A stretch of DNA of 64,000 bases from Thermoplasmata archaeon. GTDB taxonomy: Archaea > Thermoplasmatota > Thermoplasmata > RBG-16-68-12 > JAJISG01. The notes beneath the pieces are model-generated. The model was not told where the DNA came from and did no database searches. It was given only the letters and a program-made list of their open reading frames with translations. Position 1 is the stretch's first letter. Each line of letters starts with the position of its first letter. The translations under genes were made by a program, and so were the position numbers. The stretch covers positions 3,898 through 67,897 of the forward strand of contig JBHIBO010000007.1 in the NCBI GenBank assembly GCA_046759185.1, given 5' to 3'. Positions 4,206-49,085 of the stretch are shown here, in pieces.

Positions 4206-4239
4206 CGTTCCTCAAGTCCCCGGGTGAGGGGGAACCTCG

Positions 4240-4733: not shown

Positions 4734-4806
4734 AGGCGGGGTTCATCCGAGCGCCGCCATGGAGGAGACGGTCGTCCACGGGTCGTGAGCCGGCGGGGGT
4801 TCCTCT

Positions 4807-5076: not shown

Positions 5077-5151
5077 GGTCTTACCCCTCGGGTGAGCCGC
5101 ACGAGCCCGTTGGCTTTAAACCCTCCCGGCTCCGCCCCGAAGCACGCGGTC

Positions 5152-6075
5152 TTAACGTGGCTTGGTGAGCTGCTGGACGAACGTAAACAGGAAGAGGCCG
5201 ATGAAGGCTGCGATCAAGCCCAGGGCCGCAAAGACGTCGAGACGGAGCCAGGGCACCCAATGATGCACCCACCAGTCGACGGAGGCCACGGCGAGCACGT
5301 AGACGGTTACGTAGACGTAGAGGAAGGCGATCAGGCCGAAGACGAACAGGGCCCTCCCCGTTGCACCAAGAACGGCCATGCGCAGGCTGACGGAGAGGGA
5401 ATCCTTGCCTCGAGTCAGCGCCGTCAAGAAAGGCGGAGTCCGGACCCGGGTATCGGCGATCTCTCCCTCCCGTAGCTCTCGGGAAAGGGACGCGGCCTCT
5501 CGCTCCCACGTTACGCCGAGAAGCGCCATCAAGCCCCCAAACAATCCGGCGGCAGCCAGGACTGAACCCAGGGCACCGGTCACGTCGAAGGTGGCGATAG
5601 GAAGCACCTTCACTTCCGGGGCAACCAGGGCGAGCCGAGCGGGTTCAAACGGATCCTGGGTTCCTGTTCCTGTGGCGCGGATGACGGCGGTGGCGGCGAC
5701 GCCCTGTGACTCCCCCGTCACAAAGATCCGTAGGGGTGTCTGCCCATTTTCCAAGCCACCCACAACAAGCAGGTCGACCGGGACGCCTCCGAAGTCCTGG
5801 ACCCGTTCGATGGACAGGACGGGTCCCTGCACAACCAGGATCTCGCCAAGGTAGAGGGCCGGGTTCTCCTGCAGCCCATCGATGACGCGCGATTCCAGCA
5901 CGCGATCAAATTGTATCCGATCGGAACCCCCCAGGACCGCTCCTAGGCCCACTGCCAAGCCGAGAAGGCCCAAGGCGATGACAAGGACAAAGAGAAAGGT
6001 CCAGGCCATGCTCGACAGGTGCCTTGGGATCGCCCCGCGCGGTTTCCCGCGGTCCTTCATGCTCGTTTCAGGCAA
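5152..6075 (-). CDS. Membrane protein, unknown function
   Basis: N-terminal TM (WTFLFVLVIALGLLGLAVGLGAVLG), a soluble middle domain and C-terminal TM helices. I recognise no named motif. Confidence 0.6.
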   Translation of the reverse strand: MPETSMKDRGKPRGAIPRHLSSMAWTFLFVLVIALGLLGLAVGLGAVLGGSDRIQFDRVLESRVIDGLQENPALYLGEILVVQGPVLSIERVQDFGGVPVDLLVVGGLENGQTPLRIFVTGESQGVAATAVIRATGTGTQDPFEPARLALVAPEVKVLPIATFDVTGALGSVLAAAGLFGGLMALLGVTWEREAASLSRELREGEIADTRVRTPPFLTALTRGKDSLSVSLRMAVLGATGRALFVFGLIAFLYVYVTVYVLAVASVDWWVHHWVPWLRLDVFAALGLIAAFIGLFLFTFVQQLTKPR

Positions 6076-6221
6076 CCAGACTCATCCCCTTCGCCGGCGT
6101 TCCCAGAGCGAACGTGCCGGTTGGACGCCGGTTGTGCGTCGGCCAGAGCTCTGATAAACCTTTGTAAGCGGTTCTCGTCCTCGAAAGCCAGCGTCATCCG
6201 CAGGCGTTAAGTGGCCGATGT

Positions 6222-7874
6222 CTACGGATGGACGGGAACGGAGCGCGCCCGCGGCTCCGCATCCTTCAGGCTCCTCCTTAGGGCGTGGAGCCTTGCCTCA
6301 AGTTTCTTCGTGGCGTAGCTGGCGGTTGCCCAGAGGAGCCCGTGTCGGGTGACGTAGCTGAGGAGAGACGAAGTCCCCCGGCAGGCCAGCCGCCTCCCCT
6401 CCCCGCCTTGGAGGGTGCGGTTCGTCAGCAAAAAGCCCTGGATCATCAACTCGGTCTGGAGCGGGTTGGCCAGGACCTCATCGTAGACCGTCTGTGGTCT
6501 CTTTCGAAGCGCCCCCATAGGAATGAAGGGAAGAGCGTGGACGGTCACCTTGTAGCCCTTGAGACGGTCCATCAGCTCCAGCGCCGCGATGACGTCCTCC
6601 TCCCGCTCCCCTGGGATGTTGATGATCATCGTGGCGCATACAAGCCACCGATGGTCGTTGAGGAGACCAACGGCCTGCTCCACGACGTCCCCGTACTCCT
6701 CAGGCTGATAGGGCAGGACCTTGCCCGGCATGATCTGTTTGATCAGGCGAGGACTGGGGGTCTCGATGCCCATCTCGATGTAGCTCCAACGGTCTTGCGT
6801 CATGTATTCCGCGGCCAAGGGGACGACCTCGGGCTTGGACATGATGGTGGCCGCCGCGCTGAAGTCCGTCTCCAGCGCCACCTCCTCCCCCGTGATCCGA
6901 GAAATCCTCTCCAGGAGGCGTCGCAGCTGGGCCGGATCGGGCGTCAAGCCTCGGACGCCGTAGCGGAAGAACTCCTCCGAGTGGAGGCAGACCGTGTCCG
7001 TGCCTGCCTCGACGTTGAGCCTCACCTCCTTCTCGATGGCCTCGAGGGGCATGGACCGGAACGCCAACAGCGTCGGGTGACAGAACTTGCACCCGCGGCC
7101 ACACCCACGGGTGATCTCCACCATGCCTCCGGTGGAGGGTGTGATGATGGGGGGGATGTCCTCCGCCGGCACGGGTCGGCCGTGCACCACACTAGGGATG
7201 GGATCCCCTCGGACCACTTGGCCGAAGACCTCCGGAATGGTCTTCTCCCCCTCCCCCTCCATCACGCAGTCGATGCCCCACTCCGACGGGTTTGTGAGGT
7301 CGAGGAACTGCCACACCGCTGGTCCGCCGATGATGACCTTCGGGCGGTGCGTCCCAAGGGACGGGTGTTGCAGGACCTCCAGGAAGGCTCGTCGCGTGAA
7401 CGGCCCGCCCTTCGGTGTGTACCCCAGGAGCCGCATGAGAACGTACATGATGCCGCTTCCAAAGCTGACCCCGAGGGGATCCATTGTTGTCAGCCCCAGA
7501 ACCCTCGTCCGCGGGCCTACTACTTCGTCCAACCTCCGGGGATCCGCGATGATGACCTGGTCGCGGGTGAAACCATGATGGAGGAGGATGGACTCCACCT
7601 TGCTGAGGGCGAGCGGCGCCACGGGAATCCTTCCTTCCTCGTTCGATCGAGTTGGGAAGAGCCAGTTTTCCATGAAGGACCGGAAGAACTCATCGGGCAG
7701 GGCTGAGGCAAACGCCCAGTAGGGCATCCCACCGTAGTCGCTCATCATCCCGGCGGATCCCGTCAAGACAATCTCGTAGCCTCCCCTAGGCCCCGAACGG
7801 GCGCCTGAACGGACGGCTGAATCGGATTCCGAGAGGAGAGCCGTCTCAGACAGGGGTCCAGTAAAGGACGTCAT
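6222..7874 (-). CDS. B12-binding-domain / radical SAM protein
   Basis: Radical-SAM cluster motif EITRGCGRGCKFCHPT (C-x3-C-x2-C), preceded by a Rossmann-like N-terminal domain as in archaeal B12-rSAM enzymes. 550 aa, uninterrupted. Confidence 0.85.
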   Translation of the reverse strand: MTSFTGPLSETALLSESDSAVRSGARSGPRGGYEIVLTGSAGMMSDYGGMPYWAFASALPDEFFRSFMENWLFPTRSNEEGRIPVAPLALSKVESILLHHGFTRDQVIIADPRRLDEVVGPRTRVLGLTTMDPLGVSFGSGIMYVLMRLLGYTPKGGPFTRRAFLEVLQHPSLGTHRPKVIIGGPAVWQFLDLTNPSEWGIDCVMEGEGEKTIPEVFGQVVRGDPIPSVVHGRPVPAEDIPPIITPSTGGMVEITRGCGRGCKFCHPTLLAFRSMPLEAIEKEVRLNVEAGTDTVCLHSEEFFRYGVRGLTPDPAQLRRLLERISRITGEEVALETDFSAAATIMSKPEVVPLAAEYMTQDRWSYIEMGIETPSPRLIKQIMPGKVLPYQPEEYGDVVEQAVGLLNDHRWLVCATMIINIPGEREEDVIAALELMDRLKGYKVTVHALPFIPMGALRKRPQTVYDEVLANPLQTELMIQGFLLTNRTLQGGEGRRLACRGTSSLLSYVTRHGLLWATASYATKKLEARLHALRRSLKDAEPRARSVPVHP

Positions 7875-33938: not shown

Positions 33939-34055
33939 TCACGGCACTCGCCGCGCAAGCAGACCCCGAAGGGTGATCGCCAGGACGTACCCAAAGACGG
34001 CCAGGAGGGAGGCCAGAAGGAACCAGAGGAACGCTGAAAAGAGGAGGGCGCTCAC
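33939..34055 (-). CDS. Candidate 38-aa single-TM peptide translationally coupled to the symporter
   Basis: The symporter stop and this GTG start are adjacent (..GAT TGA GTG AGC..). Product: VSALLFSAFLWFLLASLLAVFGYVLAITLRGLLARRVP. Confidence 0.35.
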   Translation of the reverse strand: MSALLFSAFLWFLLASLLAVFGYVLAITLRGLLARRVP

Positions 34056-35504
34056 TCAATCACCGATCTCGACAACTTCATCGGCCAACCGGCGCAGGTC
34101 GAAGCGCTCGCGCCGTGCGGAGAAGAGGAACGTCAGAGCGGCAGAGACGCCCAGGGCGGCGGCAAAGCTCAGGAGAAAGAAGGTCGCCACGTCGGCCCCC
34201 GAGGCGGACAAGCCCAGCACGAAGAGGGGGGCCCCGACCACGATACCCGCCACCCCGGCGACCGCGGCCCCCCGCCCCCCAAGACGCCCGGAATAGAAGC
34301 CATAGAGCGTGGGGAAGGCGGCAGCGGAGCACACCAAATCCGCGACAAGGAAGAGGAGGAGGACGCTGAAGCCAAGGGAGGCGATGGCGATGGCCGCCAG
34401 GGCGAGGGCGAGAGTCACAACGCGGGCAACCGTGAGAAGGTCACGGGAGCGGACCCGAGGCCCCAGGCGCGGGATATCGGCGGTGAAGACGCTGGCGATC
34501 CCGTTCAGCAAGGAGTCCATTGTCGACATGATCAGCGCGAGGAGGAGCACGAAGAGGACGAGAATGACCCACTCCGGGAAGGACGCGATGACGAGGGAGA
34601 AGAAGGCCACGGACGGCGTGTCCGCGAGACCGTAGCCGGCTGCGACGATGCCGAAGACGCCAGCGAGGATGACCATGGGGATGACCGCGAACCCCGCGAC
34701 GGCTAGTCCCCGGCGGAGGACACGCTCATCGCGACTCGTGTAGAACCGCTGCCAATAGGCTTGGTTGAAGATGTTGGCCCCCGTGATGGCGATGGCAACG
34801 AAGATGGCGAAGTAGATCCCCGGAAGGTGATCGAGGCGGAGGAGTTCGGGGGCATTCGCCACGATCGTGCTATAGATGGCTTCGGGTCCCCCGAGCGCCA
34901 GGACGGCGCCCAGGAAGGCCACGGCCATAACGGGGAGAATCACGAGGGTCTGGAGGCTATCGGTCAGGACGGAGGCCCGTATCCCCCCATAGACCGTGTA
35001 AGCGACGGTGGCGAGCCCCACGATGAGCGCCGGCACGAAGAACGGAATTCCGGTGAGCAAGTTGAAGGCCAGGGAAATGGCCGTCAGCTCCGCCGCCAGG
35101 AAGATGAACATGTAGAAGACGGTCACGAACAGAACCAACGCATACATGCTCTGCCCGTAACGGGCCAGGCTCAACTCCGTCACCGAGTGGCCTTTGGGCG
35201 CGAGACGCCGGACCCGGGGGCCGATGAAGTAGTAGACAACCAGCGGAATCGCACTGCCGATCCCGTAACCCAGAACCGCGGGGAAGCCCCAGAGGACCCC
35301 GGCCTCCGCGGGACTGAAGAGAATCCAGGAACCCATCACGGTGGCGATGAAGGTCGCCGTGGCGACGTGGAGCCCCATGGAGTTTCGGGCCGTGATGTAG
35401 TCCTCCGCCGTGCGCACGTCTCCTCGGGTCAGGAGGAAGCCAGCCGTCGCGAATCCCCCCACAGTCCCGAGGGCCAGGAGGACAAGGACCAAAGGATCGG
35501 CCAT
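34056..35504 (-). CDS. Sodium:solute symporter family (SSS) transporter
   Basis: ..DYITARNSMGL.. near the N-terminus, and about 13 TM helices typical of PutP/SglT-type SSS proteins. Confidence 0.8.
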   Translation of the reverse strand: MADPLVLVLLALGTVGGFATAGFLLTRGDVRTAEDYITARNSMGLHVATATFIATVMGSWILFSPAEAGVLWGFPAVLGYGIGSAIPLVVYYFIGPRVRRLAPKGHSVTELSLARYGQSMYALVLFVTVFYMFIFLAAELTAISLAFNLLTGIPFFVPALIVGLATVAYTVYGGIRASVLTDSLQTLVILPVMAVAFLGAVLALGGPEAIYSTIVANAPELLRLDHLPGIYFAIFVAIAITGANIFNQAYWQRFYTSRDERVLRRGLAVAGFAVIPMVILAGVFGIVAAGYGLADTPSVAFFSLVIASFPEWVILVLFVLLLALIMSTMDSLLNGIASVFTADIPRLGPRVRSRDLLTVARVVTLALALAAIAIASLGFSVLLLFLVADLVCSAAAFPTLYGFYSGRLGGRGAAVAGVAGIVVGAPLFVLGLSASGADVATFFLLSFAAALGVSAALTFLFSARRERFDLRRLADEVVEIGD

Positions 35505-35597
35505 GGCGAACGCTCCGTTAGGGTCGTTCCCGAATAAACCTTACAGCCAAAGTCGATAGGCTAAACTCAAATAGGAGCCGCCTGGTAGAACGAGCTG

Positions 35598-36272
35598 GTG
35601 TCCAAGGATCGAGCGTTAGTCCTTCTATCCGGAGGACTGGACTCCGCCGTGTCGTTTCATTGGGCCCTGAAACAGGGCTGGTCCGTTCGGCCCATCACGT
35701 ACAACTACCACGAGAGGCCGCAGCGAGAAAAGGACGCCACCGCAAGCCTCGTAAGGCGGGCTGATCTACGCGACGAGCTCATCGAGGTCGAACTCCCCTT
35801 CTTGATGGAGGTGGAGGACCTGCAAGAGAACGGCATAGAGAACCGGGCCCTGGGACGCGCCCCGGGCTCGTACATACCGGCGCGGAACCTGATCTTTTAC
35901 GCCACCGCGGCGCACTACGGGGAGATTCTCTCCGCCCGATGGCTCGTCGGCGGCCACAACGGGGCGGACGGGGAGATCTTCCCCGATGCCACCCCCGCGT
36001 TCTTTGAGGGCCTGAACCGACTCCTGACCATGGGTCTCCTCACCGCCACGACCTCCCGCCTCCAGGTGGTCAACCCCCTCAAGGGCCGGACCAAGGTCGA
36101 AGTGCTCCGCCTCGGCCGGGAATTGGACGTTCCTTTCGCGTTGACCTGGAGCTGCCACTATGATCGGGCTGTTCCCTGTGGCACTTGCAGCTCTTGTCGG
36201 GAGAGGGAGAAGGCGTTCCAGGAGCTGGGTGTCGAGGATCCCCTTCTTGCCGCGCCAGGAGCGCGCCCGTAG
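35598..36272 (+). CDS. queC: 7-cyano-7-deazaguanine synthase
   Basis: PP-loop LLSGGLDSAV, C-terminal Zn cluster ..CGTCSSCRER.., GTG start. Confidence 0.85.
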   Translation: MSKDRALVLLSGGLDSAVSFHWALKQGWSVRPITYNYHERPQREKDATASLVRRADLRDELIEVELPFLMEVEDLQENGIENRALGRAPGSYIPARNLIFYATAAHYGEILSARWLVGGHNGADGEIFPDATPAFFEGLNRLLTMGLLTATTSRLQVVNPLKGRTKVEVLRLGRELDVPFALTWSCHYDRAVPCGTCSSCREREKAFQELGVEDPLLAAPGARP

Positions 36273-36289: not shown

Positions 36290-36634
36290 ATGCGGCTCGG
36301 CGTCACGGAGTATATGGACAGCGCCCACTTCCTCCCGGGCCATGCCAAGTGCGGTACTCTTCACGGTCACACCTACAAGGTGGAGGTCATCGTCGAAGGC
36401 GAAGCGAAGTCGGGCATGGTCATCGACTTTGCCGATCTCAAGGACCACGTACGCAAGGTCATGGCGGCCTACGATCATCGAGCTTTGAACGACATCCTGG
36501 AGTATCCTTCGGTGGAGAACATCTGCGAGCGGCTGGCGGCCGACCTGAAGGACCACCTCTCGTTTCCGTTCCTCGTACGTGTTTGGGAGGGCCAGGGCAA
36601 GTGGGCCGAAACCCAGGCCTCACCCGTCGGTTGA
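36290..36634 (+). CDS. queD: 6-carboxy-5,6,7,8-tetrahydropterin synthase
   Basis: ..DSAHFLPGHAKCGTLHGHTYKVEV..G.V.DF..LK.. is the PTPS/QueD signature. GGTGAGGG lies before ATG 36290. Confidence 0.85.
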   Translation: MRLGVTEYMDSAHFLPGHAKCGTLHGHTYKVEVIVEGEAKSGMVIDFADLKDHVRKVMAAYDHRALNDILEYPSVENICERLAADLKDHLSFPFLVRVWEGQGKWAETQASPVG

Positions 36635-36657
36635 TGGGTGGATCCGGCCCGGGTACG

Positions 36658-36664
36658 TTATATA
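36658..36664 (+). promoter_or_regulatory. TATA box (TTATATA) upstream of the aspartase/fumarase gene
   Basis: It lies about 45-50 nt before ATG 36708, with GGAGA 8 nt before the ATG. Confidence 0.45.
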
Positions 36665-36707
36665 CGCGTGGATTAAGAACCGCGGACATCCTATCGGAGA
36701 ACCGACC

Positions 36708-38105
36708 ATGACCGAATTCAGGGTGGAGAAGGACTTCCTCGGCGAGGTTCAGGTGCCCGCGGGCGCCTATTGGGGTGTACAGACGCAGCGAGCGGTGGAG
36801 AACTTCCCGATAAGCGGCCTGCGGCTCCAGCCTCGCTTCATTCGGGCCCAGGCTCTCATCAAGCTAGCGGCGGCCAAGGCGAACGTGGAAGTGGGGTTCC
36901 TCGACAAGAAGCTGGGCCAGGCCATTGTCCAGGCGGCGGAGGAGGTTCTCGATGGCAAGTACGACGACCACTTCGTGGTGGACGTGTACCAGTCGGGGGC
37001 CGGGACATCCCAGAACATGAACGCGAACGAGGTGATCGCAAACCTGGCGACCGAGCTTCTGGGAGGCGAACGCGGCTCGTACGAGATGGTCCATCCCAAC
37101 GACCACGTGAACATGGCTCAGTCCACCAACGACACGATTCACGTTGCGATGCATATCGCCGCCCTCATGGCGATTCACGAAGACCTCCTGCCTTCCATGC
37201 GGACCCTGGCGGAGGCGCTGGACGCGAAGGCGGAGGAGTTCGACGACGTCCTCAAGATCGGGCGGACCCACCTGCAAGACGCAGTGCCCATCCGTCTCGG
37301 CCAAGAGTTCAGTGGGTTCGCCTCGATGATTCATCACGCCATCGGCCGCGTCGAACAGGCGTCCCACGCGTTGGAGGAGCTCGCTCTCGGAGGCACGGCC
37401 GTCGGAACGGGCCTGAACGCCCACCCCCGCTACCCCGAGCTTTCCATCGCGGAAATCAGCCGGCTGACGGGCCTCGCCTTCCGTCGCCCCGACAACATCT
37501 TCGAGGCCATGCAGAACACCGATGCCGCCGTGGAGGTGAGCGGGGCCCTGAAGACGCTGGCCGTCAGCCTCATCAAGATCGCCAACGACATCCGGCTGTT
37601 AAGCTCCGGCCCACGGACCGGGATTGCTGAGATTCGGCTCCCGGCGGTGCAACCGGGTTCCTCCATCATGCCCGGTAAGGTGAACCCCGTCATGGCCGAA
37701 ATGCTCAACATGGTCGCGTTCCAGGTTCTGGGGAACGACACGACCATCACCTACGCCACCCAGGCGGGGCAGCTCGAGCTCAACGTGATGATGCCCGTCA
37801 TCGCCTACAACCTCCTCCACGCCATCCAGGTGACTGCGGCAGGGATCCTGGCCTTCACCGAACGAGCCCTGCGAGGGATCGAGGTAGATCGGGAACGGTG
37901 CGAGTCTTACATCGAGTGGAGTACCGCCATGGCTACCGCCCTCTCCCCGCGCATCGGGTATCACCGGGCCGCCGAGATCGCGAAGAAGGCCTTCGCGGAA
38001 GGCAAGACCGTCCGAGACATCGCGGTGGGAGACGGTGTGCTGAGCGAAAGGGAGCTGGACGAGCTCCTGGATGCGAATCGGATGACCCGGGTGCTAGAGA
38101 AGTAG
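36708..38105 (+). CDS. Aspartate ammonia-lyase / class II fumarase family enzyme (AspA-like motif)
   Basis: ..VDVYQSGAGTSQNMNANEV.. (AspA-like rather than the FumC WQTGSGT), ..MAQSTNDT.., and the signature GSSIMPGKVNPV. Confidence 0.85.
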   Translation: MTEFRVEKDFLGEVQVPAGAYWGVQTQRAVENFPISGLRLQPRFIRAQALIKLAAAKANVEVGFLDKKLGQAIVQAAEEVLDGKYDDHFVVDVYQSGAGTSQNMNANEVIANLATELLGGERGSYEMVHPNDHVNMAQSTNDTIHVAMHIAALMAIHEDLLPSMRTLAEALDAKAEEFDDVLKIGRTHLQDAVPIRLGQEFSGFASMIHHAIGRVEQASHALEELALGGTAVGTGLNAHPRYPELSIAEISRLTGLAFRRPDNIFEAMQNTDAAVEVSGALKTLAVSLIKIANDIRLLSSGPRTGIAEIRLPAVQPGSSIMPGKVNPVMAEMLNMVAFQVLGNDTTITYATQAGQLELNVMMPVIAYNLLHAIQVTAAGILAFTERALRGIEVDRERCESYIEWSTAMATALSPRIGYHRAAEIAKKAFAEGKTVRDIAVGDGVLSERELDELLDANRMTRVLEK

Positions 38106-38122
38106 AGGCGGCCGAGGGAGGT

Positions 38123-39046
38123 TCAGCCCGCTCCTTCAAGAAGGGCCAGCGCCTCGTCCCGACTCTTCTCCAGGACGTCCCCCGATGCTTGGAGGTCCTC
38201 CAATTCGGTCGCCTCCAAATCCCATTCGAGGATCTCGGTGACGCCCCCCGCCCCCAGGACCACGGGCATCCCGATGCTGACATCCTTCAACCCGTACTCG
38301 CCCTTCGTGACGATGGAGGAGGGAATGAGGACCGCCATGTCCTGGAGCACGGCCTCAATCATGTCCGCGGTCCCGTTGGCAGGACCGTACTCGGTGGCAC
38401 CCTTCCCGGAGATGATGTTGATAGCGACCTCCTTGATGCTCCCCCGAATGGCCGTCCTCTCCTCCGGGGAGAAGGCCTGGGGCTCCCCATCCACCTCCAC
38501 GCGCGACCACACCGGGACCTGACTGTCTCCGTGCTCGCCTAGGACGTAGGCTTCCACGCTGGCGGCGGGCACGGAGAGGTGATCGCCCAGCGCCGTCCGA
38601 AAGCGGGATGTGTCCAGCATGCCACCCGAACCCACAACCTGGGTCCGGCGCAATCCGGAGGCCTGATGGGCCACGTAGTTCATCACGTCCATGGGATTGG
38701 TCAGGTTGATCATGACCGCCTGGGGGGCGAGGTCGCCCACTCGATGGGCAATGTCCTGCATGATGGGGGCGTTGGTCTCGAGCAAGTCGAGGCGCGACAT
38801 CCCTGGCTGGCGTGGGCGGCCCGCCGTGACCACGACCACAGCGGACTCGCGAATGTCCTCGTAGCCCCCAGCGCGGAGGGAGGTCTCGGCCTTGTACTCC
38901 ACGGCATGCCGCATGTCGGCGGCCTGGCCCCGAGCCAGGTCCTCCAGGATGTCCACCATCACGATTTCGTCCGCCAGGCCACGCAAGGCGGTCGTGTAGG
39001 CAATCGTGCTGCCGAGCCTGCCCGTTCCTATGAAGGATACCTTCAT
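38123..39046 (-). CDS. mdh: Malate dehydrogenase (LDH-like family)
   Basis: MKVSFIGTGRLGSTIAY.., and ..TAGRPRQPGMSRLDL.. with Arg at the substrate-discriminating position (MDH rather than LDH), plus ..GEHGDS... Confidence 0.85.
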   Translation of the reverse strand: MKVSFIGTGRLGSTIAYTTALRGLADEIVMVDILEDLARGQAADMRHAVEYKAETSLRAGGYEDIRESAVVVVTAGRPRQPGMSRLDLLETNAPIMQDIAHRVGDLAPQAVMINLTNPMDVMNYVAHQASGLRRTQVVGSGGMLDTSRFRTALGDHLSVPAASVEAYVLGEHGDSQVPVWSRVEVDGEPQAFSPEERTAIRGSIKEVAINIISGKGATEYGPANGTADMIEAVLQDMAVLIPSSIVTKGEYGLKDVSIGMPVVLGAGGVTEILEWDLEATELEDLQASGDVLEKSRDEALALLEGAG

Positions 39047-39102
39047 TGCGCCACCCCCCGTTTTCGCGGCGCCTAGCAACCGGTCTCTTAATGAGGTTTG
39101 CG

Positions 39103-39450
39103 TTAGGGTAGATACTCTTCGCGAGGGTGGGCGAAGACGTCGAGGATTTCCAAGTCCTCCTCGGCCACGGCGTCGTGTTCCACGCCTGCAGGCACCAGAT
39201 ACGATGAACCAGGCGTTAGCTCGGTGGCTCTGCCGCCGATGATCATGCGGATCTTCCCTTTCAGCACATAGCCCGCCTGCTCAAAGGGATGCGTATGGGC
39301 CCCGAAAACCGTCCCTTCTCGAATCGACCAGTGGACCAGCATGAGGCCTTCCCCATAGACCAAGGTCCGTCGGACGATGCCCTCCCGCATCTCGACAGCT
39401 TCCACATCACCGACGGACGCCGAAAGCTGCGCCATGAAATCTCGGACCAT
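39103..39450 (-). CDS. Cupin-domain protein
   Basis: ..HTHPFEQAGYVLKG.......G........G....P.G.EH.. contains the two cupin motifs. Confidence 0.7.
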   Translation of the reverse strand: MVRDFMAQLSASVGDVEAVEMREGIVRRTLVYGEGLMLVHWSIREGTVFGAHTHPFEQAGYVLKGKIRMIIGGRATELTPGSSYLVPAGVEHDAVAEEDLEILDVFAHPREEYLP

Positions 39451-39522
39451 CCGATTCTCCTGCCGCCATCAAACCCGAAAAGATTGATATAGCTTGGTTC
39501 GCGATGAATCGGCGGGCTTTTC

Positions 39523-41790
39523 ATGCTTGGCATGACACGCATCAGCGAGGAAGAGGCGTTGGAGTACCATCGGCGACGCCCCTCCGGCAAGCTGGCCATT
39601 AATTCGACCAAACCTACCGTCACGCAGCGAGACCTCTCACTCGCCTACACACCTGGTGTAGCGGCAATCTCCCGTGCAATCGAGGAGGACCCCTCTTCGG
39701 TCTTCACCTACACCGCACGGGGCAACCTGGTGGCCGTGATCACTAACGGTTCCGCCATCCTGGGCCTGGGAAACCTTGGCCCCCTCGCAGCGAAACCCGT
39801 CATGGAAGGGAAGGCAGTCCTCTTCAAGAAACTGGCCGACATCGACGTGTTCGACCTGGAGCTGGACTGTTCGGAGCCGGAACAGCTCGTGGAGGTTGTC
39901 AAGACCCTGCAACTCGGTTTCGGCGGCATCAACCTGGAGGACATCAGCGCCCCCGATGCCTTCTTGATCGAGGAACGGCTCCGGAAAGAACTGGACATCC
40001 CCGTCTTCCATGACGACCAACATGGCACCGCCATTATTTCGGGGGCGGCTCTCCTGAACGCTCTGGAGCTTCAGGGGAAGTCCCTGGAGAAGGTGCGCAT
40101 CGTCATCTCGGGCGCAGGGGCGGCAGGGTTGGCGTGCGCGGCCTTTTACGTGACCCTGGGTGCCAGACAGGAGAACCTCCTCGTCGTGGATTCGGTGGGC
40201 GTTCTCTACCGCGGACGAAAGAAAGGCATGAACGCCTACAAGGAGCGTTTCGCTCAGGAAACGGAGGCCCGAACGCTAGGTGACGCCATCAAGGGTGCCG
40301 ACGTCTTCATCGGCCTCTCCGTGGGGGGCATCGTCACACCGGAGATGGTGGCGTCCATGGCCGAATACCCCATCGTGTTTGCCATGGCAAACCCCGATCC
40401 GGAAATCGGCTACGAAGAGGTCAAGGCCGTGCGCCCGGACGCCGTTGTCGCCACGGGTCGGAGCGATTTTCCGAATCAGGTCAACAACGTCCTTGGCTTC
40501 CCGTTCATCTTCCGTGGGGCGCTGGATGTCCGCGCGCGCAGCATCAACGAGGAGATGACAGTGGCTGCGACCCGGGCCTTGGCGGCCCTGGCCAAGGAGG
40601 ATGTGCCGGATGCCGTGCGTCGAGCCTACGGAGGACAAGACCTCGCTTTCGGACCGAGCTATATCCTCCCCAAACCGTTCGACGAGCGGGTGCTCCTTCG
40701 CGTGGCCCCCGCGGTCGCCCAGGCCGCCATGGAGGCCGGCGTTGCAGCGAAGGAAGTGGACCTCCGGGCCTACCAAGAGGAGCTCCGGAGTCGCCTGGGC
40801 AAGGCGATGGAGATGATGACCGTCATCTTCAACAAGGCCCGGAGCGACCCCAGGCGCATCGTCTTCCCCGAGGGGACCCACGGCAAGATCCTCCGGGCTT
40901 GTCAGATTCTGGCCCGGGAAGGCCTCGCGAGGCCCATCTTACTGGGGAACCCAGAGGCTATCGCTCAGGAAATGACGCGGCTCAGGCTGGACTTCGAGGC
41001 CGAGATTATTGACCCACTGGCCTCGGACCGCCACGAGGCTTACAGCGAGCAGCTCTACGAACTGCGACGACGAAAGGGGGCGACGCATACGGAGGCCCAC
41101 GAGATGCTCCGGAACCCGAACTACTTCGGCGCCATGATGGTCCACTCCGGAGATGCGGACGGTTTCATCAGCGGTCTCACCACCCACTACCCGGATGCTC
41201 TCCGGCCGGCCTTGCAGGTTCTGGGGACGCGGGAGGGCGTCCGCAGGGTGGTGGGCCTCTACATGATCACGCTGAAGGATCGCGTCCTCTTCTTCGCGGA
41301 CGCCACAGTGAACATCGACCCGAACGCGGAGGACCTCGCCGAGATCGCCATCGCGGCCGCCGAGGCGGCCCGACGGTTCGATGTCTATCCCCGGGTGGCC
41401 ATGCTCAGCTTCTCCAACTTCGGCAGCGTGCAGCATCCGTTGAGCGACAAGGTTCGGCGGGCCGTGGGTTTGGTGCGCGAACGCGATCCCACTCTCGAGG
41501 TGGATGGTGAGATGCAGGCCGACACAGCCGTTGTCCGTGAGATCCTCGAAACCACGTACCCCTTCTCGCGGTTGAAGGGGCCAGCGAACGTTCTGATTTT
41601 CCCCGACTTGGAAGCCGCCAACGTATCCTACAAGCTGATGCAGCGGCTTGCGGACGCGGAGGCGACGGGACCCATCTTGGAGGGCATCAGGGGCTCGGTC
41701 CACATCCTGCAGCGGGGAGACGACGTGAAGGACGTGGTGAACATGGCGGCCATTGCCGTCGTGGGAGCGCAGGAGATCGAAAAGTCGTGA
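39523..41790 (+). CDS. NADP-dependent malic enzyme with C-terminal phosphotransacetylase-like domain (MaeB type)
   Basis: ..[12 protein letters not shown].., ..[33 protein letters not shown].., ..[10 protein letters not shown].., ..ISGAGAAG... A PTA-like half of about 330 aa follows. 755 aa, uninterrupted. Confidence 0.9.
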
Positions 41791-41900: not shown

Positions 41901-44744
41901 ATGGCGAAGAAGACGGCCTCCCGTTCGAAGGGAAGCACGACCCGCAAGAAGTCTCCTCCTCGGAGCGGCAACAAGAGGCGCGGTAAGGGATCCATCAAGG
42001 TCAGCAAGAAGCAGGCCGAGCGCATGGCCCTCCTTCAGCTTCGGATCGGCCGGGCGGCGCACCTGTACAGCATGGCGGCGGCCTTTGCCCTGGCCGCCAG
42101 CGGGATCCTCCTCCTCCTCACCCAACCCGGTCGAGCCTTGGAAGGTCTGCCCATGGACACCCGGATGGTTCTCCCGTGGCTCATGCCCATCCTGGCGGGG
42201 GCCTTCACCGCGGCGTCGGCCCTTTACCTGAAGTGGAAGCCCTATGCCAGCGAGCGGTCCAGCCGCCACTTTGTCCTGACGGTCATCGCCCTGCTGGCCT
42301 CCGTGGCCACCCTCCTCCTCCTCGCCCTGCAGAACCTCCAGGGCTTCAACCCTCAGAGCCTGGTATGGGTGTACCCGAGCGCCTTGGCGGGCATCTCTCT
42401 CACCCTCATCTCTCTGGCCATGACGTGGCGTGGGTGGGGCCGTCGCAAGGTGCTGAGCATGCTGGCAGCGGCCTTCCCCATGGCCTTAATGGTCTACGGG
42501 TTCAACCCCATCTTCTCGACCGGCATCCCGCCGGACCTCCTCATCCTGACCTTCATGGGGAGCGCGGTGGCCGTGCAATTCAGCGGATCCATGCTCCACG
42601 TTACCTCCACATCAAACCGCGTCCAGACGCGTGAGATGATCCGGGTTAGCAACGACCGCCTGCAGATTCTTGGCGAGCAGCTGCAGTCCCAGAGGAAGGC
42701 GCTAGACTACAAGGAGAAGGCTCTGCGGACGAAGGAGGCAGACCTGGAGGTCAACGAGAAGGCCCTCAAGCAGCGTCTCCGCTCGGTCGACGACGCGCGA
42801 AAGGAACTGGAATCCCTTCAGACGAAGGTCGACCGAAGCACCGACGAGCTCCGCCAGTTGAAGAAGACCATCGGTGGGCGCGAGGCCGATGTGGCCACCC
42901 GAGAGCAGAAGCTCAGCCTGCAGCAGAAGGACCTGGGCAGCCGGGAAAGCGAGGTGAAGAAGACCCTGAAGCGACTCTCCAAGCAGGAGGGCCAGCTGGC
43001 CAACCAGGAACGGAGTCTGGAGAAGAGTCTCCGAGGACTCGAGGATCGAAAGGCGGACCTGGCAGACAGGGAGGTCGAACTCCGGGAGGCCGAACGTGCC
43101 CAGAAGGATCTCAGGAAGGAGTTGGACACCGGTCGCAAGCAGCTTATGGAGCGTGAGAGCGAGGTTCGCCTGAAGGAGAGTGCGCTGGAGATGAAGGGAG
43201 GCGGCGTGGGCCTCGCGGCGCGGGACGTAAGCATCCCGAAGCAGATCAAACGACTCGAAGCCCGTCTCCTGGACAAGGAGAAGGAACTGAGCCAACGGGA
43301 ACTCCAGCTGAAGCGGACCACCCAAGAGGTCGAGGCTTCCGCCCGGAAATCAGAGGACCGCGCCAAGAAGGCAGAGCAACGTCTCGCGAAGGTCGCCAGC
43401 CAGGGGAAGGACCTCACATCTCGGGAGAAGGAGATCGCCCAACGGGAGAGCGCCCTCCAGAGGCAGGAGCACGATCTCGAACGCCAGAGAGCCCTCATGG
43501 AGTCGTCCGTGGCGAGCATCCGGGAGAAGGAAGCGAAGTACGAGCAACTGTACAAGGAGGCCCACTCCCAGGCCTCCTCAGCGCGTCACACGGAGAAGGA
43601 GATCCAAGACGAGTTGGCGACGGTGCGGGAGCGGGAAGCGAAGTTGGAGAGAATGAAGGCCTCCCTCGAGGAGGAGCGAGATGAGATCAACGCGATGCTC
43701 CAGGATCTGCTCCGCAAGGAGAAAGAGGTCGAGGCGCGCGAATCCGAAACCAAGCTCCGCATCCTGGAGGCGAAGAAGAAGATTCGCACCATGCCGGTCT
43801 CCGGCGATGCCCGGGCCCTGATGGAGCGGGAAAAGGCCCTCGAGCTGAGGGAGAAGAGACTGACGGACAAGGAGCTAGAGGTGAAGTCCCGTCTGTACGA
43901 GAAAGCGAAGGCGTTGAAGGAGAAGGAAACGGCCATCAAGAAGGGGTTGACGATAGTGGAGGTCGATGAGGTGGACGAACCCATGGAGCAGGCAGCATCG
44001 ACGGGCACCCGGGGGAGTTCCGGAATTCGTCGACTCGACGACCTCCTGATGGGCGGCATTCCCATCGGCTCACAGATCCTCTACGTGGGGCCCGCCTTTG
44101 TCGGCAAGGAGGTCGCGATTCTCAATTTCATCGCAGAGGGGCTCCGGAGCGGGGTTCCCTGCGTCTTCATCACGACTTCCCGTCCCCCCGACGAGGTGGC
44201 GAAGGACATGGGCCCCATCCTACCCTCGTTCATGGAGTACGAACAGGTGGGCCTCATCCGGTGGATCGACGGCTCCACGCCCTTGGCAGACCCCAAGAAG
44301 AAGACGCCCATCGTCGAAGGGAACACCTACGTCGTTGCTGGCGCCGGCGACTACGAGGGCATCCTCGGGGCCATGAACCTAATCGTAGAGGAGCTGAGCA
44401 AGGAGGACTATCCCTACTTCAAACTGGCCTACATGACCCTCTCCACCTCCCTGACCCAAGGGAGCGAGAAGGAGGCCATGAGCTACGTCCAGCGCTTCGT
44501 GAATGGCATGCGCCAGATGGACTCCATTGGCATCTACGCGGTGGAGGGCGGGATGCACGAGAAGCAACAGATCGAGGCCCTAGAGCACCAGATGGAGGGG
44601 ACCATCCACTTCCGGAGCGAGCGTCAGAAGAGCCAGCTCAAGGTCGCCGGTATCGCCGACACTCAGACCCGGGATTGGGTGGAGTATAAGCATGATAGCC
44701 GGACCCTGCGCCTCGGGGCGTTTCAGCTCGAGCGAATCCGGTGA
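41901..44744 (+). CDS. Membrane protein: basic N-tail, about 6 TM helices, long repetitive coiled coil, C-terminal KaiC/RecA-like domain with degenerate Walker motifs
   Basis: N-terminus MAKKTASRSKGSTTRKKSPPRSGNKRRGKG... Six hydrophobic helices up to about residue 245, then an uninterrupted heptad-rich K/E/R/L segment of about 470 aa. The C-terminus reads ..GIRRLDDLLMGGIPIGSQILYVGPAFVGKEVAILNFIAEGLRSGVPCVFITT.. (KaiC/RadA-like). Confidence 0.85.
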   Translation: MAKKTASRSKGSTTRKKSPPRSGNKRRGKGSIKVSKKQAERMALLQLRIGRAAHLYSMAAAFALAASGILLLLTQPGRALEGLPMDTRMVLPWLMPILAGAFTAASALYLKWKPYASERSSRHFVLTVIALLASVATLLLLALQNLQGFNPQSLVWVYPSALAGISLTLISLAMTWRGWGRRKVLSMLAAAFPMALMVYGFNPIFSTGIPPDLLILTFMGSAVAVQFSGSMLHVTSTSNRVQTREMIRVSNDRLQILGEQLQSQRKALDYKEKALRTKEADLEVNEKALKQRLRSVDDARKELESLQTKVDRSTDELRQLKKTIGGREADVATREQKLSLQQKDLGSRESEVKKTLKRLSKQEGQLANQERSLEKSLRGLEDRKADLADREVELREAERAQKDLRKELDTGRKQLMERESEVRLKESALEMKGGGVGLAARDVSIPKQIKRLEARLLDKEKELSQRELQLKRTTQEVEASARKSEDRAKKAEQRLAKVASQGKDLTSREKEIAQRESALQRQEHDLERQRALMESSVASIREKEAKYEQLYKEAHSQASSARHTEKEIQDELATVREREAKLERMKASLEEERDEINAMLQDLLRKEKEVEARESETKLRILEAKKKIRTMPVSGDARALMEREKALELREKRLTDKELEVKSRLYEKAKALKEKETAIKKGLTIVEVDEVDEPMEQAASTGTRGSSGIRRLDDLLMGGIPIGSQILYVGPAFVGKEVAILNFIAEGLRSGVPCVFITTSRPPDEVAKDMGPILPSFMEYEQVGLIRWIDGSTPLADPKKKTPIVEGNTYVVAGAGDYEGILGAMNLIVEELSKEDYPYFKLAYMTLSTSLTQGSEKEAMSYVQRFVNGMRQMDSIGIYAVEGGMHEKQQIEALEHQMEGTIHFRSERQKSQLKVAGIADTQTRDWVEYKHDSRTLRLGAFQLERIR

Positions 44745-45952: not shown

Positions 45953-46789
45953 CTACCGCTTTACCGTCCAGCCAATCATGCCCTTCACGTAGAACTTCTG
46001 CAGGAACGCGTAGACGAGGATTGGGACGATCATCACGAGAAGCGCAGCGGCGGTAAGAAGGCCCCAATCGGCTTGGAACTGCCCGAGGGCCAGCCTCGGG
46101 ACGAGCTGTGTCGCCATCATCAGACTTGGTTCCTGAATGAAAATCGTGGCAAAGAAGAAGTCGCTCCACACCCACATGAACTGGAGAACGAAGACCGAGG
46201 CGAGAGCGGGAAACGCCATGGGAAGGACCACCCGAAAGAACACCTTGGTATCCGATGCACCGTCCACCCGCGCCGCCTCCTCGATTTCCACGGGGAGCGT
46301 GCCGAAGAAGTTCCGCATGAACAGGATGATCCATGGCAACCCCCAGGTCATGTGAATCAGGATGAGAGCCCCGAAGGTGTTCACCAGATTCAAATCGACC
46401 ATGATCTGGAAGAGAGGAATCGCGACCATCATCTGGGGGACGGCCATAAGAAGGACAATCGTGAGGAAGACGTAGTCCCGGATGGGCCAACTGAACCGAG
46501 CGAACCCGTAACCCGCCAGGGCGCCGATGACCAACGGCAACAGGGTCGCGGGGAGAACCACGAGGAAGGAGTTTCGAAGCCCCACACTCATGGGGAAGAT
46601 GTCGTGGAAGAACGCGGTGACGAAGTTGGTCAGGGTAATATTGAGGGGACTCAGAATCCACCATCCGTCGAGAACCTCGTTGGAGGGTCTGAACGAGCTC
46701 ACCAGGACTCCCAGGAAGGGAATGAGCCACACCACGGCGGCTGTCCACGCCACAATGTGGATCACCAGGGTCCGCAGCGGGAACCTCAC
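45953..46789 (-). CDS. Carbohydrate ABC transporter permease (MalG-like)
   Basis: Six TM helices and the EAA loop ..EEAARVDGASDTKVFFRVVLP... It has a 4-nt overlap with the upstream permease. Confidence 0.85.
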   Translation of the reverse strand: MRFPLRTLVIHIVAWTAAVVWLIPFLGVLVSSFRPSNEVLDGWWILSPLNITLTNFVTAFFHDIFPMSVGLRNSFLVVLPATLLPLVIGALAGYGFARFSWPIRDYVFLTIVLLMAVPQMMVAIPLFQIMVDLNLVNTFGALILIHMTWGLPWIILFMRNFFGTLPVEIEEAARVDGASDTKVFFRVVLPMAFPALASVFVLQFMWVWSDFFFATIFIQEPSLMMATQLVPRLALGQFQADWGLLTAAALLVMIVPILVYAFLQKFYVKGMIGWTVKR

Positions 46790-47757
46790 CGACTCACCAG
46801 CCTTCGCACGAGAAAGACGAGGGCCACCAAGGTGAGCCCCGTCAAGATGGTCGCCACCACCGACGCAAGGTGGAGGTCGAAGTCGAGGAAGAAATAGCGA
46901 AACATCTGAAGCGCCAAGACATCCGCAGCCTGTCCTACCCCGCCGCTCGGGTTGGTAGCGGCAATGATGATGTCGAAGATCTTTAGCTCCCAGAGAATCG
47001 TCATCGTGACGATGACCAGCGTCATGGGCTTGAGCAGGGGGAAGGTGATTCGAGAAAAGGTCCGCCAGGAGGAGGCTCCGTCAATCTTCGCGGCCTCAAA
47101 GTATTCCCGAGGGATCGTGGTGAGCCCCGCGGAGTAGATGATCAGGCTGAATCCCATCCACATCCAGACGGAGCCGAAAATCAGGCCATAGAGCAGCGTC
47201 GTGGGCCGAGCGATCCAATTCGTCGCCAGTTCCTCGACGCCGATGGATTCGAAAAAGGACGGGACGAGGCCGACATCTTGTTCAAAGAGAAAGCGGAGGA
47301 TGAAGCCACCGACAATCATCGGCGTCACCATCCCAATGAACACAATGGATTTGACGAAGGAAGCTCCTCTCACCCCGCGCAGGATGATGGCCAATGCCAG
47401 CCCCGTGAACAGCGTCAGAGGAAGGTGGATGGCGATCCAGATCGCGTTGTTGATTAGAGTACCGTACGGCGGCTCGGGGAAGTTCGCCAGGTTCAGAGTG
47501 TCCTGATGCGTGAGGACCGTGGCGTAGTTGTCCAGGGTCGGGTCGCCTACCCCTCCCTCTGGGAAGAAGCTGAGAATCAGGGTCGTGTAGATCGGGAACG
47601 CGATGAAGATGCCGATGAGGACCAGGGCCGGGAGGAAGAAGGACATCCGACCCACGCCCTTCTTGAATCGTGGCCAGGTGAAGATACGCCGAAGGTGCTC
47701 ACGGCTGAGGCCTTCCCGAATCCGTTCCCAGCTAGAGATGGACGCCAATCTGCTCAC
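46786..47757 (-). CDS. Carbohydrate ABC transporter permease (MalF-like)
   Basis: The EAA loop ..FEAAKIDGASSWRTFSRITFP.., and a multi-TM topology. Confidence 0.85.
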   Translation of the reverse strand: MSRLASISSWERIREGLSREHLRRIFTWPRFKKGVGRMSFFLPALVLIGIFIAFPIYTTLILSFFPEGGVGDPTLDNYATVLTHQDTLNLANFPEPPYGTLINNAIWIAIHLPLTLFTGLALAIILRGVRGASFVKSIVFIGMVTPMIVGGFILRFLFEQDVGLVPSFFESIGVEELATNWIARPTTLLYGLIFGSVWMWMGFSLIIYSAGLTTIPREYFEAAKIDGASSWRTFSRITFPLLKPMTLVIVTMTILWELKIFDIIIAATNPSGGVGQAADVLALQMFRYFFLDFDLHLASVVATILTGLTLVALVFLVRRLVSR

Positions 47758-47825
47758 CGCTGGCCAACGCTGGCAACAAAGGGAAAAGGGGAGGGTAAGT
47801 CCCGTGTGCGGGACTCACCACTCCA

Positions 47826-49085
47826 CTACCGGGCGCCTTCGATGGCCGCCAGGACGGCGTCCAATTGCGACGGGTCGGCCCAGAGCAGCAGGAGCTGGGC
47901 CCAGAACGCCGTCTGGAAGGATCCGCCAATGGTGTCGTCCAGATCCGCGAGGATCTCCTTGCCGGCGATCAGGTCGCCACTGAAGGTCGGTGGCGCCTTG
48001 CTCGGGTCGGCGTTGACATTCGTCGCAAAGTGTCCGCCCTGCTCTATCTGTTTCTCCTGCCCCTCTACGCTCATGAGGTAGTCGAACAACGCCTGCGCAT
48101 CGGCCATCCTGGTCGTGTACGTCGGGACGAACACGTAGTCCACGGAGAACACGACGCCTTGGTCCGCAACGCCGCCGGGCAGGGCCATGGCGCGCATGTT
48201 GGCGGTGGTGCCCGTGTCCGTAATCTGGGACATGGTGGGCAGCCAGCTGCCCTGGAAGTAGAGCGCGTTGTCCCCGTCCTGGAGGTTCTTCACGCCCGCC
48301 GTCCACTCCACGGGGGAATCGAAGTATCCCGCCGTGATGAGCGGGACCAGGTAATCCGTGAAGACCGCCTTGACGTCTGCGTCCGTGAACGCAGCCGCAC
48401 CCGAGACCAGGTCCTTGTGCATCTGAGCACCGCCATACGTCGCGATGAAGTGCTCCGTCAGGTCCGAAAGGGGCCAGCCATCGGTGGTGCTCACGATGGG
48501 GGTCATGTCCGTGGCGATGTCCGCCAGCAGCGCCTGGAATTCGGCGAAGTTAGCCGGGGTCGTGTCCCAGCCCTTGCTGGTGAACAGGTCGTTCTTGTAC
48601 CAGAAGCCGGGCTTGACCTTGCCTGTGAAAGCACCGCCATAGATGGCGGACCCGCTGCTGATCGGATCCAGGGCCCCGGCGAGGAAATCTGCCTCGTTCA
48701 ATGTCCCGGACATATCCACGGCGTGCCCGTCAATGCCCCAGTCACGTATGAACCCGCTCGCCATGAAGATGACATCCGCGGGTGTTCGTTCGGCTTCGAA
48801 TTGGGCCGGTAGGATGAGCTGAAGGTCCTCTTGCCTGAACGTTACATCTGTGACCTTAATCCCCGTTCGGTCGGTGAAGTCCTCCAATACGGGCAGGAAC
48901 AGGTCCCGCTCGGAGCCCGACCAAGGGTGATAGACGACCAAGACTGACTCCGGCGCCGCTGCCGGGAACGCGAAGAACATGACCGACGCCGTGACCGCGT
49001 TGGTCACGACGAGGAGGATGACTAGCACGGCGACTTGAGTTCCAGTCCAGCCGGCTCTCTCCGGCATTGGTCCCGCATCTTCCAT
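47826..49085 (-). CDS. Extracellular solute-binding protein, family 1 (sugar ABC)
   Basis: An N-terminal TM anchor, then family-1 SBP features (..VVYHPWSG....F..V...F....GIKV..). First gene of the permease operon. Confidence 0.8.
   Translation of the reverse strand: MEDAGPMPERAGWTGTQVAVLVILLVVTNAVTASVMFFAFPAAAPESVLVVYHPWSGSERDLFLPVLEDFTDRTGIKVTDVTFRQEDLQLILPAQFEAERTPADVIFMASGFIRDWGIDGHAVDMSGTLNEADFLAGALDPISSGSAIYGGAFTGKVKPGFWYKNDLFTSKGWDTTPANFAEFQALLADIATDMTPIVSTTDGWPLSDLTEHFIATYGGAQMHKDLVSGAAAFTDADVKAVFTDYLVPLITAGYFDSPVEWTAGVKNLQDGDNALYFQGSWLPTMSQITDTGTTANMRAMALPGGVADQGVVFSVDYVFVPTYTTRMADAQALFDYLMSVEGQEKQIEQGGHFATNVNADPSKAPPTFSGDLIAGKEILADLDDTIGGSFQTAFWAQLLLLWADPSQLDAVLAAIEGAR

Follow-up and report, generated by a model that had tools for sequence, protein, structure and literature searches.

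This work concerns a 64,000-nucleotide (nt) window, meaning the whole stretch of DNA that was analysed, from contig JBHIBO010000007.1 of a Thermoplasmata archaeon (GCA_046759185.1), and all positions refer to it unless another locus is named. On its forward strand lies a stand-alone gene, 41901..44744 (+), which the listing of open reading frames (ORFs) gives as complete, with an ATG start, 947 amino acids (aa) and a stop codon, exactly as an earlier reading made from the letters alone (the sequence-only reading) had delimited it. The encoded protein begins with a polybasic tail, followed by six transmembrane (TM) helices with both ends inside (N-in/C-in), a helical rod of ~445 aa and a C-terminal KaiC-like domain. 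Hydropathy, AlphaFold2 (AF2) models and Pfam all uphold this layout of TM anchor, long coil and KaiC-like domain, which had been proposed at the outset. On balance we read the gene, from its sequence, as encoding a non-catalytic, membrane-tethered adaptor or hub of the KaiC family that would be specific to Thermoplasmata. The conservation counts given below rest on 145 non-identical full-length family members, collected from 85 loci and from protein searches, which align along their whole length. Full-length orthologs measure 875-969 aa, share 91-29% identity with the window protein and keep its MAKK start. Since all of the features of the ORF are conserved in orthologs, none of them is due to chance or to an assembly artefact.

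When one genome per GTDB species was scanned, at least 336 loci proved to encode a relative. The best 80 of these all belong to uncultured Thermoplasmata, 'Methanomassiliicoccales' or Thermoplasmatota metagenome-assembled genomes (MAGs), four complete chromosomes included, and all match the query end to end. Judged by sequence, the family is restricted to Thermoplasmata MAGs among these best 80 of at least 336 loci and among orthologs down to 29% identity. We give next to no credence to the idea that mis-assembly or mis-calling has joined three separate genes here, for a membrane protein, a coiled coil and a KaiC-like protein, a kind of artefact for which the sequence-only reading had allowed. 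In its favour, one locus (L087) carries the ortholog as two ORFs, a 625-aa ORF with the TM and coil parts (3960-5837) and a 243-aa KaiC-like ORF (6001-6732), the second of which is annotated 'RAD55 family ATPase'. However, the end of the first ORF looks like sequence read out of frame, so that the split is likely a frameshift or a sequencing error, and the gene is a single ORF in all of the other orthologous loci that were retrieved. The fusion idea is refuted by the 80 loci from independent MAGs and by the 145 full-length sequences. A further candidate, P0169, which had looked like a 'stand-alone' KaiC-like protein, is actually the C-terminal piece of a frameshifted copy.

The KaiC-like head and its catalytic positions

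The C-terminal head, aa 707-947 (44019..44741, +), is a single domain of KaiC/RecA fold that is predicted to be catalytically inactive. Its KaiC-type nature, already seen in the translation, is confirmed by the match to PF06745 (KaiC) over aa 707-912, at 46.3 bits with a gathering cut-off of 26.6, and the same family matches 24/24 aligned orthologs. It is equally confirmed by structure prediction. The AF2 model of aa 696-947, made with a 24-sequence alignment, has a predicted local distance difference test score (pLDDT) of 89 and a predicted template modelling score (pTM) of 0.87, and a Foldseek search with this model returned SSO2452 (2w0m), PH0284 (2dr3), PH0186 (2zts), KaiC CI/CII and FlaH, with template modelling scores (TM-scores) of 0.67-0.85 and E-values of ~1e-13. 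Both the QTR/W motif region and the overall KaiC fold are intact in the model.

The positions equivalent to the catalytic motifs were set by HMMER alignments to RecA and KaiC, and translation confirmed their coordinates. The P-loop is remodelled to GPAFVGKE, aa 730-737 (44088..44111, +), which aligns to GPESSGKT in RecA and to GtpGtGKT in KaiC; it retains the Lys and has Glu in the place of the Mg-coordinating Ser/Thr. A study of P-loop NTPases (10.1101/2022.06.23.497301) describes this Ser/Thr as Mg-coordinating and strictly conserved. The segment TTSRPP, aa 758-763 (44172..44189, +), is paired in the profile alignment ('vttSRpp' with KaiC 'vtfEEsp') such that S760-R761 occupies the position of the KaiC catalytic Glu-Glu pair. 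The strand equivalent to Walker B, KLAYMTLS, aa 841-848 (44421..44444, +), is paired likewise ('lrlafltLs' with KaiC 'rvviDSit') and has T846 in place of the Asp. These replacements hold throughout the family. The P-loop residues G730 and G735 are each conserved in 144 of the 145 sequences, K736 and E737 each in 143 and F733 in 139; the Glu-Glu columns contain S/T/A and R/K/H and never Glu; and position 846, the column of the Walker B Asp, is T in 52, S in 48 and G in 43 of the 145, and never D or E. The head ends in a tail of the form F-x-L-E-R-I-R, aa 941-947 (44721..44741, +), a candidate docking motif from the ortholog alignment, where LERIR closes ~132/145 of the proteins; the domain model has pLDDT <50 at the four final residues.

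The head therefore lacks all three of the features that define catalysis in this fold, that is, Walker A GxxxxGK[ST], the catalytic Glu after strand beta-2 and Walker B hhhhD. The sequence-only reading had described a Walker A with Glu for Ser/Thr and a Walker B without its acidic residue, and both descriptions survive the KaiC/RecA alignment and the comparison of 145 orthologs, in which canonical motifs were looked for and not found. Its word for them, 'degenerate', is correct as to the loss of the catalytic residues and incorrect if decay is meant, as G-x-x-F-x-G-K-E is present in ~143/145 orthologs. This near invariance indicates that the altered P-loop is under selection, and it points to a site that would be re-purposed rather than decaying. 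Because the domain belongs to the family by sequence and by predicted fold while the three catalytic features are lacking, the head is, at the level of sequence, an inactivated KaiC-like domain and not a KaiC-type ATPase.

It could instead be argued that the head is a still-active NTPase or kinase with an unconventional site, in which E737 would coordinate Mg and D790, D817, E882 or a residue of the neighbouring subunit would activate water, with the rod relaying conformational changes driven by nucleotide between the head and the membrane module, in either direction. The kept Lys and the nearly invariant motif argue for a functional phosphate-binding site, several acidic residues of the head are at least 90% conserved, and the KaiC fold, including the QTR/W motif region, is undisturbed. 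We nevertheless hold such activity to be quite unlikely. Three independent catalytic elements are replaced together, a basic R/K/H residue stands where the catalytic Glu should be, and the P-loop Lys itself is lost in the divergent members P0116, P0104, P0109 and P0113, which argues that the core function of the family can do without it.

Membrane module and helical rod

The N-terminal tail, aa 1-35 (41901..42005, +), is predicted from charge counts and AF2 pLDDT to be polybasic, disordered and cytoplasmic. Residues 1-54 contain 18 K/R and one D/E, aa 1-33 have pLDDT <50, and the length of the tail differs between orthologs such that it is nearly absent in some. It is followed by a family-specific membrane domain, aa 36-237 (42006..42611, +), which was delimited by hydropathy, the positive-inside rule and AF2 and in which a conserved pre-TM helix (LLQLRIGR) precedes six TM helices. 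The hydropathy profile has six hydrophobic segments, and the AF2 model has as many helices, at aa 53-73, 85-112, 122-147, 151-174, 181-200 and 211-237, with pLDDT values of ~80-90, in agreement with the original count of about six helices behind a polybasic tail. The number of K/R residues in successive loops (18 / 1 / 4 / 0 / 4 / 0) forms a positive-inside signature, and this alternation argues for an N-in/C-in topology in which everything past residue 237 is cytoplasmic. The early placement of both the coil and the KaiC-like domain in the cytoplasm, which had relied on an even number of TM helices, is thereby borne out.

The conserved surface of the membrane domain is its cytoplasmic face. 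The invariant polar and aromatic residues (R51, K111-W112, H123-F124, T175-W176, G229-S230 and H233) all lie at the predicted cytoplasmic face, column entropy averages 1.68 bits on this side versus 2.67 bits on the outer one, and the external loops are short and variable. Because the conserved surface is cytoplasmic, the module is unlikely to be an extracellular sensor, and its conserved side would be turned toward the rod and the head. The TM domain has no Pfam family and no PDB sequence relative; the top Pfam match, Acyl_transf_3 (E 0.1), and the best PDB profile match (E 0.4) were treated as noise. A word-indexed homolog search with the TM profile gave fragments only, and the exhaustive search with this profile of 1.84 billion representative proteins gave just 85 matches, mostly of 850-970 aa.

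The polybasic tail also raises the idea of a membrane tether for nucleic acid, in which the tail, the RecA-fold head or both would bind DNA or RNA. We consider this very improbable. Apart from the tail itself, it draws on the RecA-superfamily fold of the head, on matches of several family members to PAXNEB/Elp4-type models and on weak matches of the coil to RNase Y N-terminal and SMC models. However, the tail is variable in length to the point of near absence, the coil matches are compositional and far under the family cut-offs, no DNA-metabolism genes were found beside the gene on three long contigs or in 85 loci, and the nearest structural relatives of the head are KaiC-like and not RadA/RecA.

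The rod begins with arm 1, aa 239-429 (42615..43187, +), which AF2 and its DSSP assignment give as one continuous helix and the family profile as a single register (254+7k) with the consensus h-x-x-[KR]-E-x-[ED]. A central hinge, EMKGGGVGLAARDVSIP, aa 430-446 (43188..43238, +), recognised in the translation and by AF2, separates it from arm 2, aa 447-628 (43239..43784, +), again a continuous helix by AF2, with the register 449+7k and the same heptad consensus. After a Pro/Gly break (aa 629-636) AF2 places a short third helix, aa 637-683 (43809..43949, +), and then an acidic, disordered linker, aa 684-706 (43950..44018, +), with pLDDT <50 for aa 682-709. The full-length AF2 run, for which 33 sequences were aligned, is non-helical with pLDDT <50 at aa 424-447 and disordered at aa 684-711. 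The coil of the sequence-only reading, ~470 aa and uninterrupted, is thus real as a coil and not uninterrupted, since it breaks at aa 430-446 and at 629-636. The recurring coil units noted in the same reading are genuine: the motif [RK]E.[EDA][LVIA]..[RKN]E..L occurs seven times in the coil compared with 0.01 expected from shuffles, and a search for a DNA-level tandem repeat beneath these units found none.

By the family-wide hydrophobicity profile, each heptad of the two arms has only one conserved hydrophobic position, in a register that is unbroken from 254+7k to 429 in arm 1 and from 449+7k to 631 in arm 2, making 26 and 27 heptad positions, respectively. Register stutters that appeared in the single-sequence heptad analysis are noise by this profile. 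Arm lengths are strongly conserved, as arm 1 is exactly 190 aa in 104/145 orthologs and arm 2 is 181-184 aa in 94/145, while anything from 32 to 104 aa separates arm 2 from the KaiC-like domain. In the clade at ~30% identity to the window protein, arm 2 has two deletions of exactly 7 aa, and the third helix is absent with a low-complexity linker in its place. The hinge region varies in length and, in two of three clades, is rich in Gly and Pro. Heptad positions 3 ([KR]) and 4 (E) flank the hydrophobic stripe, and their pairing would bring like charges together in a parallel, in-register arrangement and opposite charges in an antiparallel one. We propose from these properties, namely two arms of near-equal length, a hinge between them and this heptad charge pattern, that the rod is probably an antiparallel fold-back hairpin of ~28 nm.

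A rod of such constant length also fits a sub-membrane skeleton, or a scaffold for cell shape or division, in which the rods would run along the membrane or stand out from it, the KaiC-like heads would oligomerise into the nodes of a lattice and signalling would be secondary or absent. We regard this as the less probable reading of the rod, though a credible one. It agrees with the lineage-wide occurrence of a stand-alone gene in housekeeping-type neighbourhoods (the SecY/ribosomal cluster in one clade), with the rings that KaiC-like domains commonly form (the structural matches PH0284 and KaiC are hexameric) and with weak, coil-only matches to SMC-like and ASRP models. On the other side, filament or lattice formation is itself a proposal drawn from sequence, the single hydrophobic position per heptad may mean weak self-association, and the coil-less paralogs and the cNMP-binding fusion described below suggest that the head functions independently of a rod lattice. 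It should be noted that a lattice and an adaptor are not mutually exclusive.

Distribution, genomic context and paralogs

The gene does not travel with particular neighbours. Distant orthologs on three long contigs have wholly different gene contexts, and neighbour clustering found no gene family beside the gene in more than 22/85 loci; synteny is clade-specific only, and in one clade the gene adjoins the SecY/ribosomal cluster. These differing contexts and the absence of a shared neighbour indicate a stand-alone, vertically conserved lineage marker rather than a member of an operon. In the window the upstream neighbours are genes for fumarase, malate dehydrogenase, a cupin and a MaeB-type malic enzyme, and downstream lies a sugar-type ABC transporter. 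The upstream genes make up a C4-dicarboxylate cluster (36579-41790), in which the malic enzyme is a 755-aa protein with a PTA domain. At the ortholog locus L001 (362-7817) the gene comes immediately after the cupin gene, and the genes called on its upstream side do not include the malic enzyme. For the ABC ATPase downstream, the mechanically called ORF begins at 44692 and shares 53 nt with the 3' end of the gene; its likely true start is the ATG at 44803 (MEHPLSD..., 369 aa), which gives a length near that of the 361-aa L001 ortholog. Positive AT-skew peaks of 0.24-0.32 occur at 34001-36000, 42001-44000 and 46001-48000 and coincide with minus-strand SSF symporter and ABC permease genes and with the purine-rich, Glu/Lys/Arg-coding coil on the plus strand; we read them as an effect of codon composition and nothing more.

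Several paralogs dissociate the parts of the protein. P0104, P0109 and P0113 (549-566 aa) lack the coil and consist of the membrane module, a disordered Pro/Arg/Ser-rich linker and the KaiC-like domain, whose P-loop is fully degenerate with the Lys also gone. At least one MAG (MFD06118_ilm_asm_bin36; loci L090, 951-2465, and L094) encodes both a coil-less and a long form. In P0116 (938 aa), the most distant full-length member, whose linker is long and Pro/Gln-rich, the P-loop Lys is gone (AYIGCDT) and a Walker B-like LVVVDSSS is kept, a pattern that suggests that different branches lost different catalytic elements.

In P0157 (403 aa), found by a head-domain profile search, a cyclic nucleotide monophosphate (cNMP)-binding domain replaces the membrane module and the rod in front of the GKE/LERIR domain. 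Its gene lies between two adenylate/guanylate-cyclase-TPR (Guanylate_cyc+TPR) genes on an 824-kb contig (L085, 3974-5866, 6001-7212 and 8785-10707). The P0157 head is up to 68% identical to the heads of the clade at ~30% identity, and for this reason we consider P0157 a recent domain shuffle. As judged from its predicted domains, P0157 shows that the head can be the output part of a second-messenger receptor. At L111, in another MAG, a cNMP-binding domain occurs as a stand-alone 144-aa protein that adjoins a cyclase gene.

The membrane module has also been found elsewhere in part. The OppC-type ABC permeases P0055 (1107 aa), P0090 (1040 aa) and P0117 (526 aa) contain its TM2-TM6 unit, with one to five copies placed after the first TM helix (OppC_N) and before the permease core (BPD_transp_1), in Opp-like operons (L088, 1308-2888; L089, 5001-6581). 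These embedded units keep the core 'WxYPxxxxGISLxxxSLA' and not the cytoplasmic-face invariants of the KaiC-coil family. The TM2-TM6 unit looks like a portable, undescribed membrane domain, to go by these occurrences.

A proposed adaptor at the membrane and its counterparts

Searches of Pfam, NCBIfam, PADLOC, PDB and the literature returned no characterised family or described system that matches the whole protein, which agrees with the early statement that its combination of TM helices, long coil and altered P-loop corresponds to no described system. The literature covered describes neither the layout of six TM helices with a two-arm coil nor a fixed GKE P-loop, although the supplementary classification of KaiC hubs may mention them. 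The NCBIfam families KaiC, ASRP and SMC gave sub-threshold matches only, and PADLOC DruC and JetC gave weak matches to the coil only. The closest relatives of the head in fold are the single-domain archaeal KaiC-like proteins PH0284 (2dr3), PH0186 (2zts) and SSO2452 (2w0m), at TM-scores of 0.75-0.85. These are soluble, stand-alone proteins that retain GxxGxGK[ST] in canonical form together with the catalytic Glu and the Walker B Asp, whereas the window protein has all three replaced and its head joined to a TM module and a ~445-aa rod. Circadian KaiC is ruled out, as there is a single KaiC-like domain and the circ_KaiC models score 17-29 bits with cut-offs of 408-546; no kaiB-like neighbour was found in the window or in the 85 loci. 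The KaiC of Rhodobacter sphaeroides (8dba, 8fwi), among the top structural matches, resembles the window protein in combining a KaiC domain with a coiled coil that drives higher-order assembly and differs in being a double-domain, active clock protein with a short C-terminal coil, a KaiB partner and no membrane anchor.

The best analogue in terms of how the protein would work is FlaH/ArlH (4yds), also a structural match to the head. FlaH has the RecA/KaiC fold, binds ATP without hydrolysing it, and through this nucleotide-dependent binding assembles a membrane-anchored machine (PMC5019145). In contrast to the window protein with its altered Walker A and its membrane anchor, FlaH is a soluble protein whose Walker A is canonical and whose gene belongs to the arl/fla operon. 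Identity with FlaH/ArlH is ruled out, since the NCBIfam FlaH model PRK06067 scores 16.7 bits, far under its cut-off of 194, and the neighbours are metabolic and ABC-transporter genes; no archaellum genes were found near the gene in the window or in the 85 loci.

KaiC-like signal-transduction hubs have been proposed in archaea (Makarova et al., 2017, as cited in PMC5847659). According to PMC5847659, the iKaiC domains of archaeal signalling proteins have a KaiC fold with disrupted catalytic motifs and serve as a module, as does the window head; the fusion partners described there are soluble domains such as REC and HalOD1, for the most part from haloarchaea and methanogens, whereas the window head is fused to a TM module and a rod. 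The KaiC-like fold and disrupted motifs of an iKaiC domain are thus both present. With regard to the linkage to signalling, the window protein has an uncharacterised TM module and no conserved neighbours, and one rare paralog is fused to a cNMP-binding domain.

Two further groups share single aspects of the protein. The RecA-like fold with a degenerate P-loop is used for assembly or binding rather than catalysis in the Elp4/5/6 proteins (PAXNEB) and in the Rad51 paralogs and Rad55. PAXNEB is matched by 13/24 family members and the source names include 'RAD55 family ATPase', but the PAXNEB matches are weak and partial, and these proteins are soluble eukaryotic or archaeal factors of recombination or tRNA modification without a membrane anchor or rod. 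Like the window protein, SMC, Rad50 and ASRP proteins combine a P-loop-type head with a long helical rod whose two arms meet at a central hinge. Their resemblance ends at the head, which in SMC proteins is ABC-type and formed from the N- and C-termini, while the window protein has a RecA/KaiC head at the C-terminus and a six-TM domain at the N-terminus. Identity with SMC or ASRP is ruled out by this difference in head type and by coil-only matches of 28.3 bits with a cut-off of 300 (ASRP) and 25 bits with a cut-off of 567 (SMC).

We now put forward a hypothetical mechanism for the adaptor. It starts from the layout established above, in which the six-helix module anchors the protein with both of its ends in the cytoplasm, and two length-conserved arms (~190 and ~182 aa) with a flexible hinge, followed by a variable linker, lead to the single KaiC-fold head. 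Since this head has lost the Ser/Thr of Walker A, the pair of catalytic Glu residues and the Asp of Walker B, we infer that the head is unable to carry out Mg-dependent NTP hydrolysis or autophosphorylation. The retained Lys (K736) may still bind a nucleotide or a phosphate ligand or, alternatively, E737 and R761 may plug the active site. The head would then serve as a unit for oligomerisation and partner docking, possibly by way of the LERIR tail, and may engage active KaiC-like paralogs. A hairpin rod would hold the head near the membrane module, as is presumably the arrangement in the coil-less paralogs. We propose that the protein works by binding, in the manner of FlaH/ArlH or of the inactivated KaiC domains of archaeal signalling proteins, and not as an enzyme. 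The suggestion of a scaffold or signalling hub in the sequence-only reading therefore stays a suggestion, one that is strengthened by the single cNMP-binding fusion among cyclase genes.

Several points weigh against this mechanism. Each functional step of the adaptor is deduced from sequence, and the strict conservation of G-x-x-F-x-G-K-E could equally fit unconventional catalysis. The link to signalling hangs on one rare, lineage-specific fusion (P0157), and the long disordered linker of the coil-less paralogs is as compatible with a simple tether as with docking. With respect to the hairpin, the full-length AF2 model leaves it unpredicted (pTM 0.35, coil pLDDT 50-76), a fold search with that model gave KaiC matches only, and the Gly/Pro-rich hinge is absent in the largest clade. 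Arm-to-arm charge complementarity, assessed by permutation of layers, is 0.149 versus 0.148 +/- 0.024 for random; at a shift of +1 heptad it reaches 0.221, ~3 standard deviations above the mean, which is unconvincing given that nine shifts were tried.

A more speculative proposal, which we think rather unlikely, is that the family is a hitherto unrecognised kind of archaeal receptor or skeleton element at the membrane, built on an SMC-like fold-back rod of ~28 nm, whose base would join the new membrane module to the KaiC head and in which GKE and R761 would form a non-hydrolysing sensor of a ligand or a partner. If true, such a protein would have an organising or signalling role on the inner side of the membrane in much of the Thermoplasmata, and the module, which occurs in up to five copies as a five-helix unit in OppC-type permeases, would be a new portable membrane domain.

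The reading that we favour remains that of a non-catalytic, membrane-tethered adaptor. It has been proposed that the main signalling hubs specific to archaea are KaiC-like proteins, of which, to our knowledge, very few have been studied, the inactive members least of all. The family described here is conserved across hundreds of uncultured Thermoplasmata species and combines a membrane module without relatives, a rod of constant length and a KaiC domain with one fixed pattern of replacements. Its importance is potential rather than demonstrated. The fixed GKE P-loop is a specific variant that poses the question of whether nucleotide binding is retained, and the family as a whole offers a well-defined test case for RecA/KaiC-fold pseudo-ATPases as membrane adaptors and is a candidate organiser of the cytoplasmic face of the membrane in a poorly understood class of archaea.

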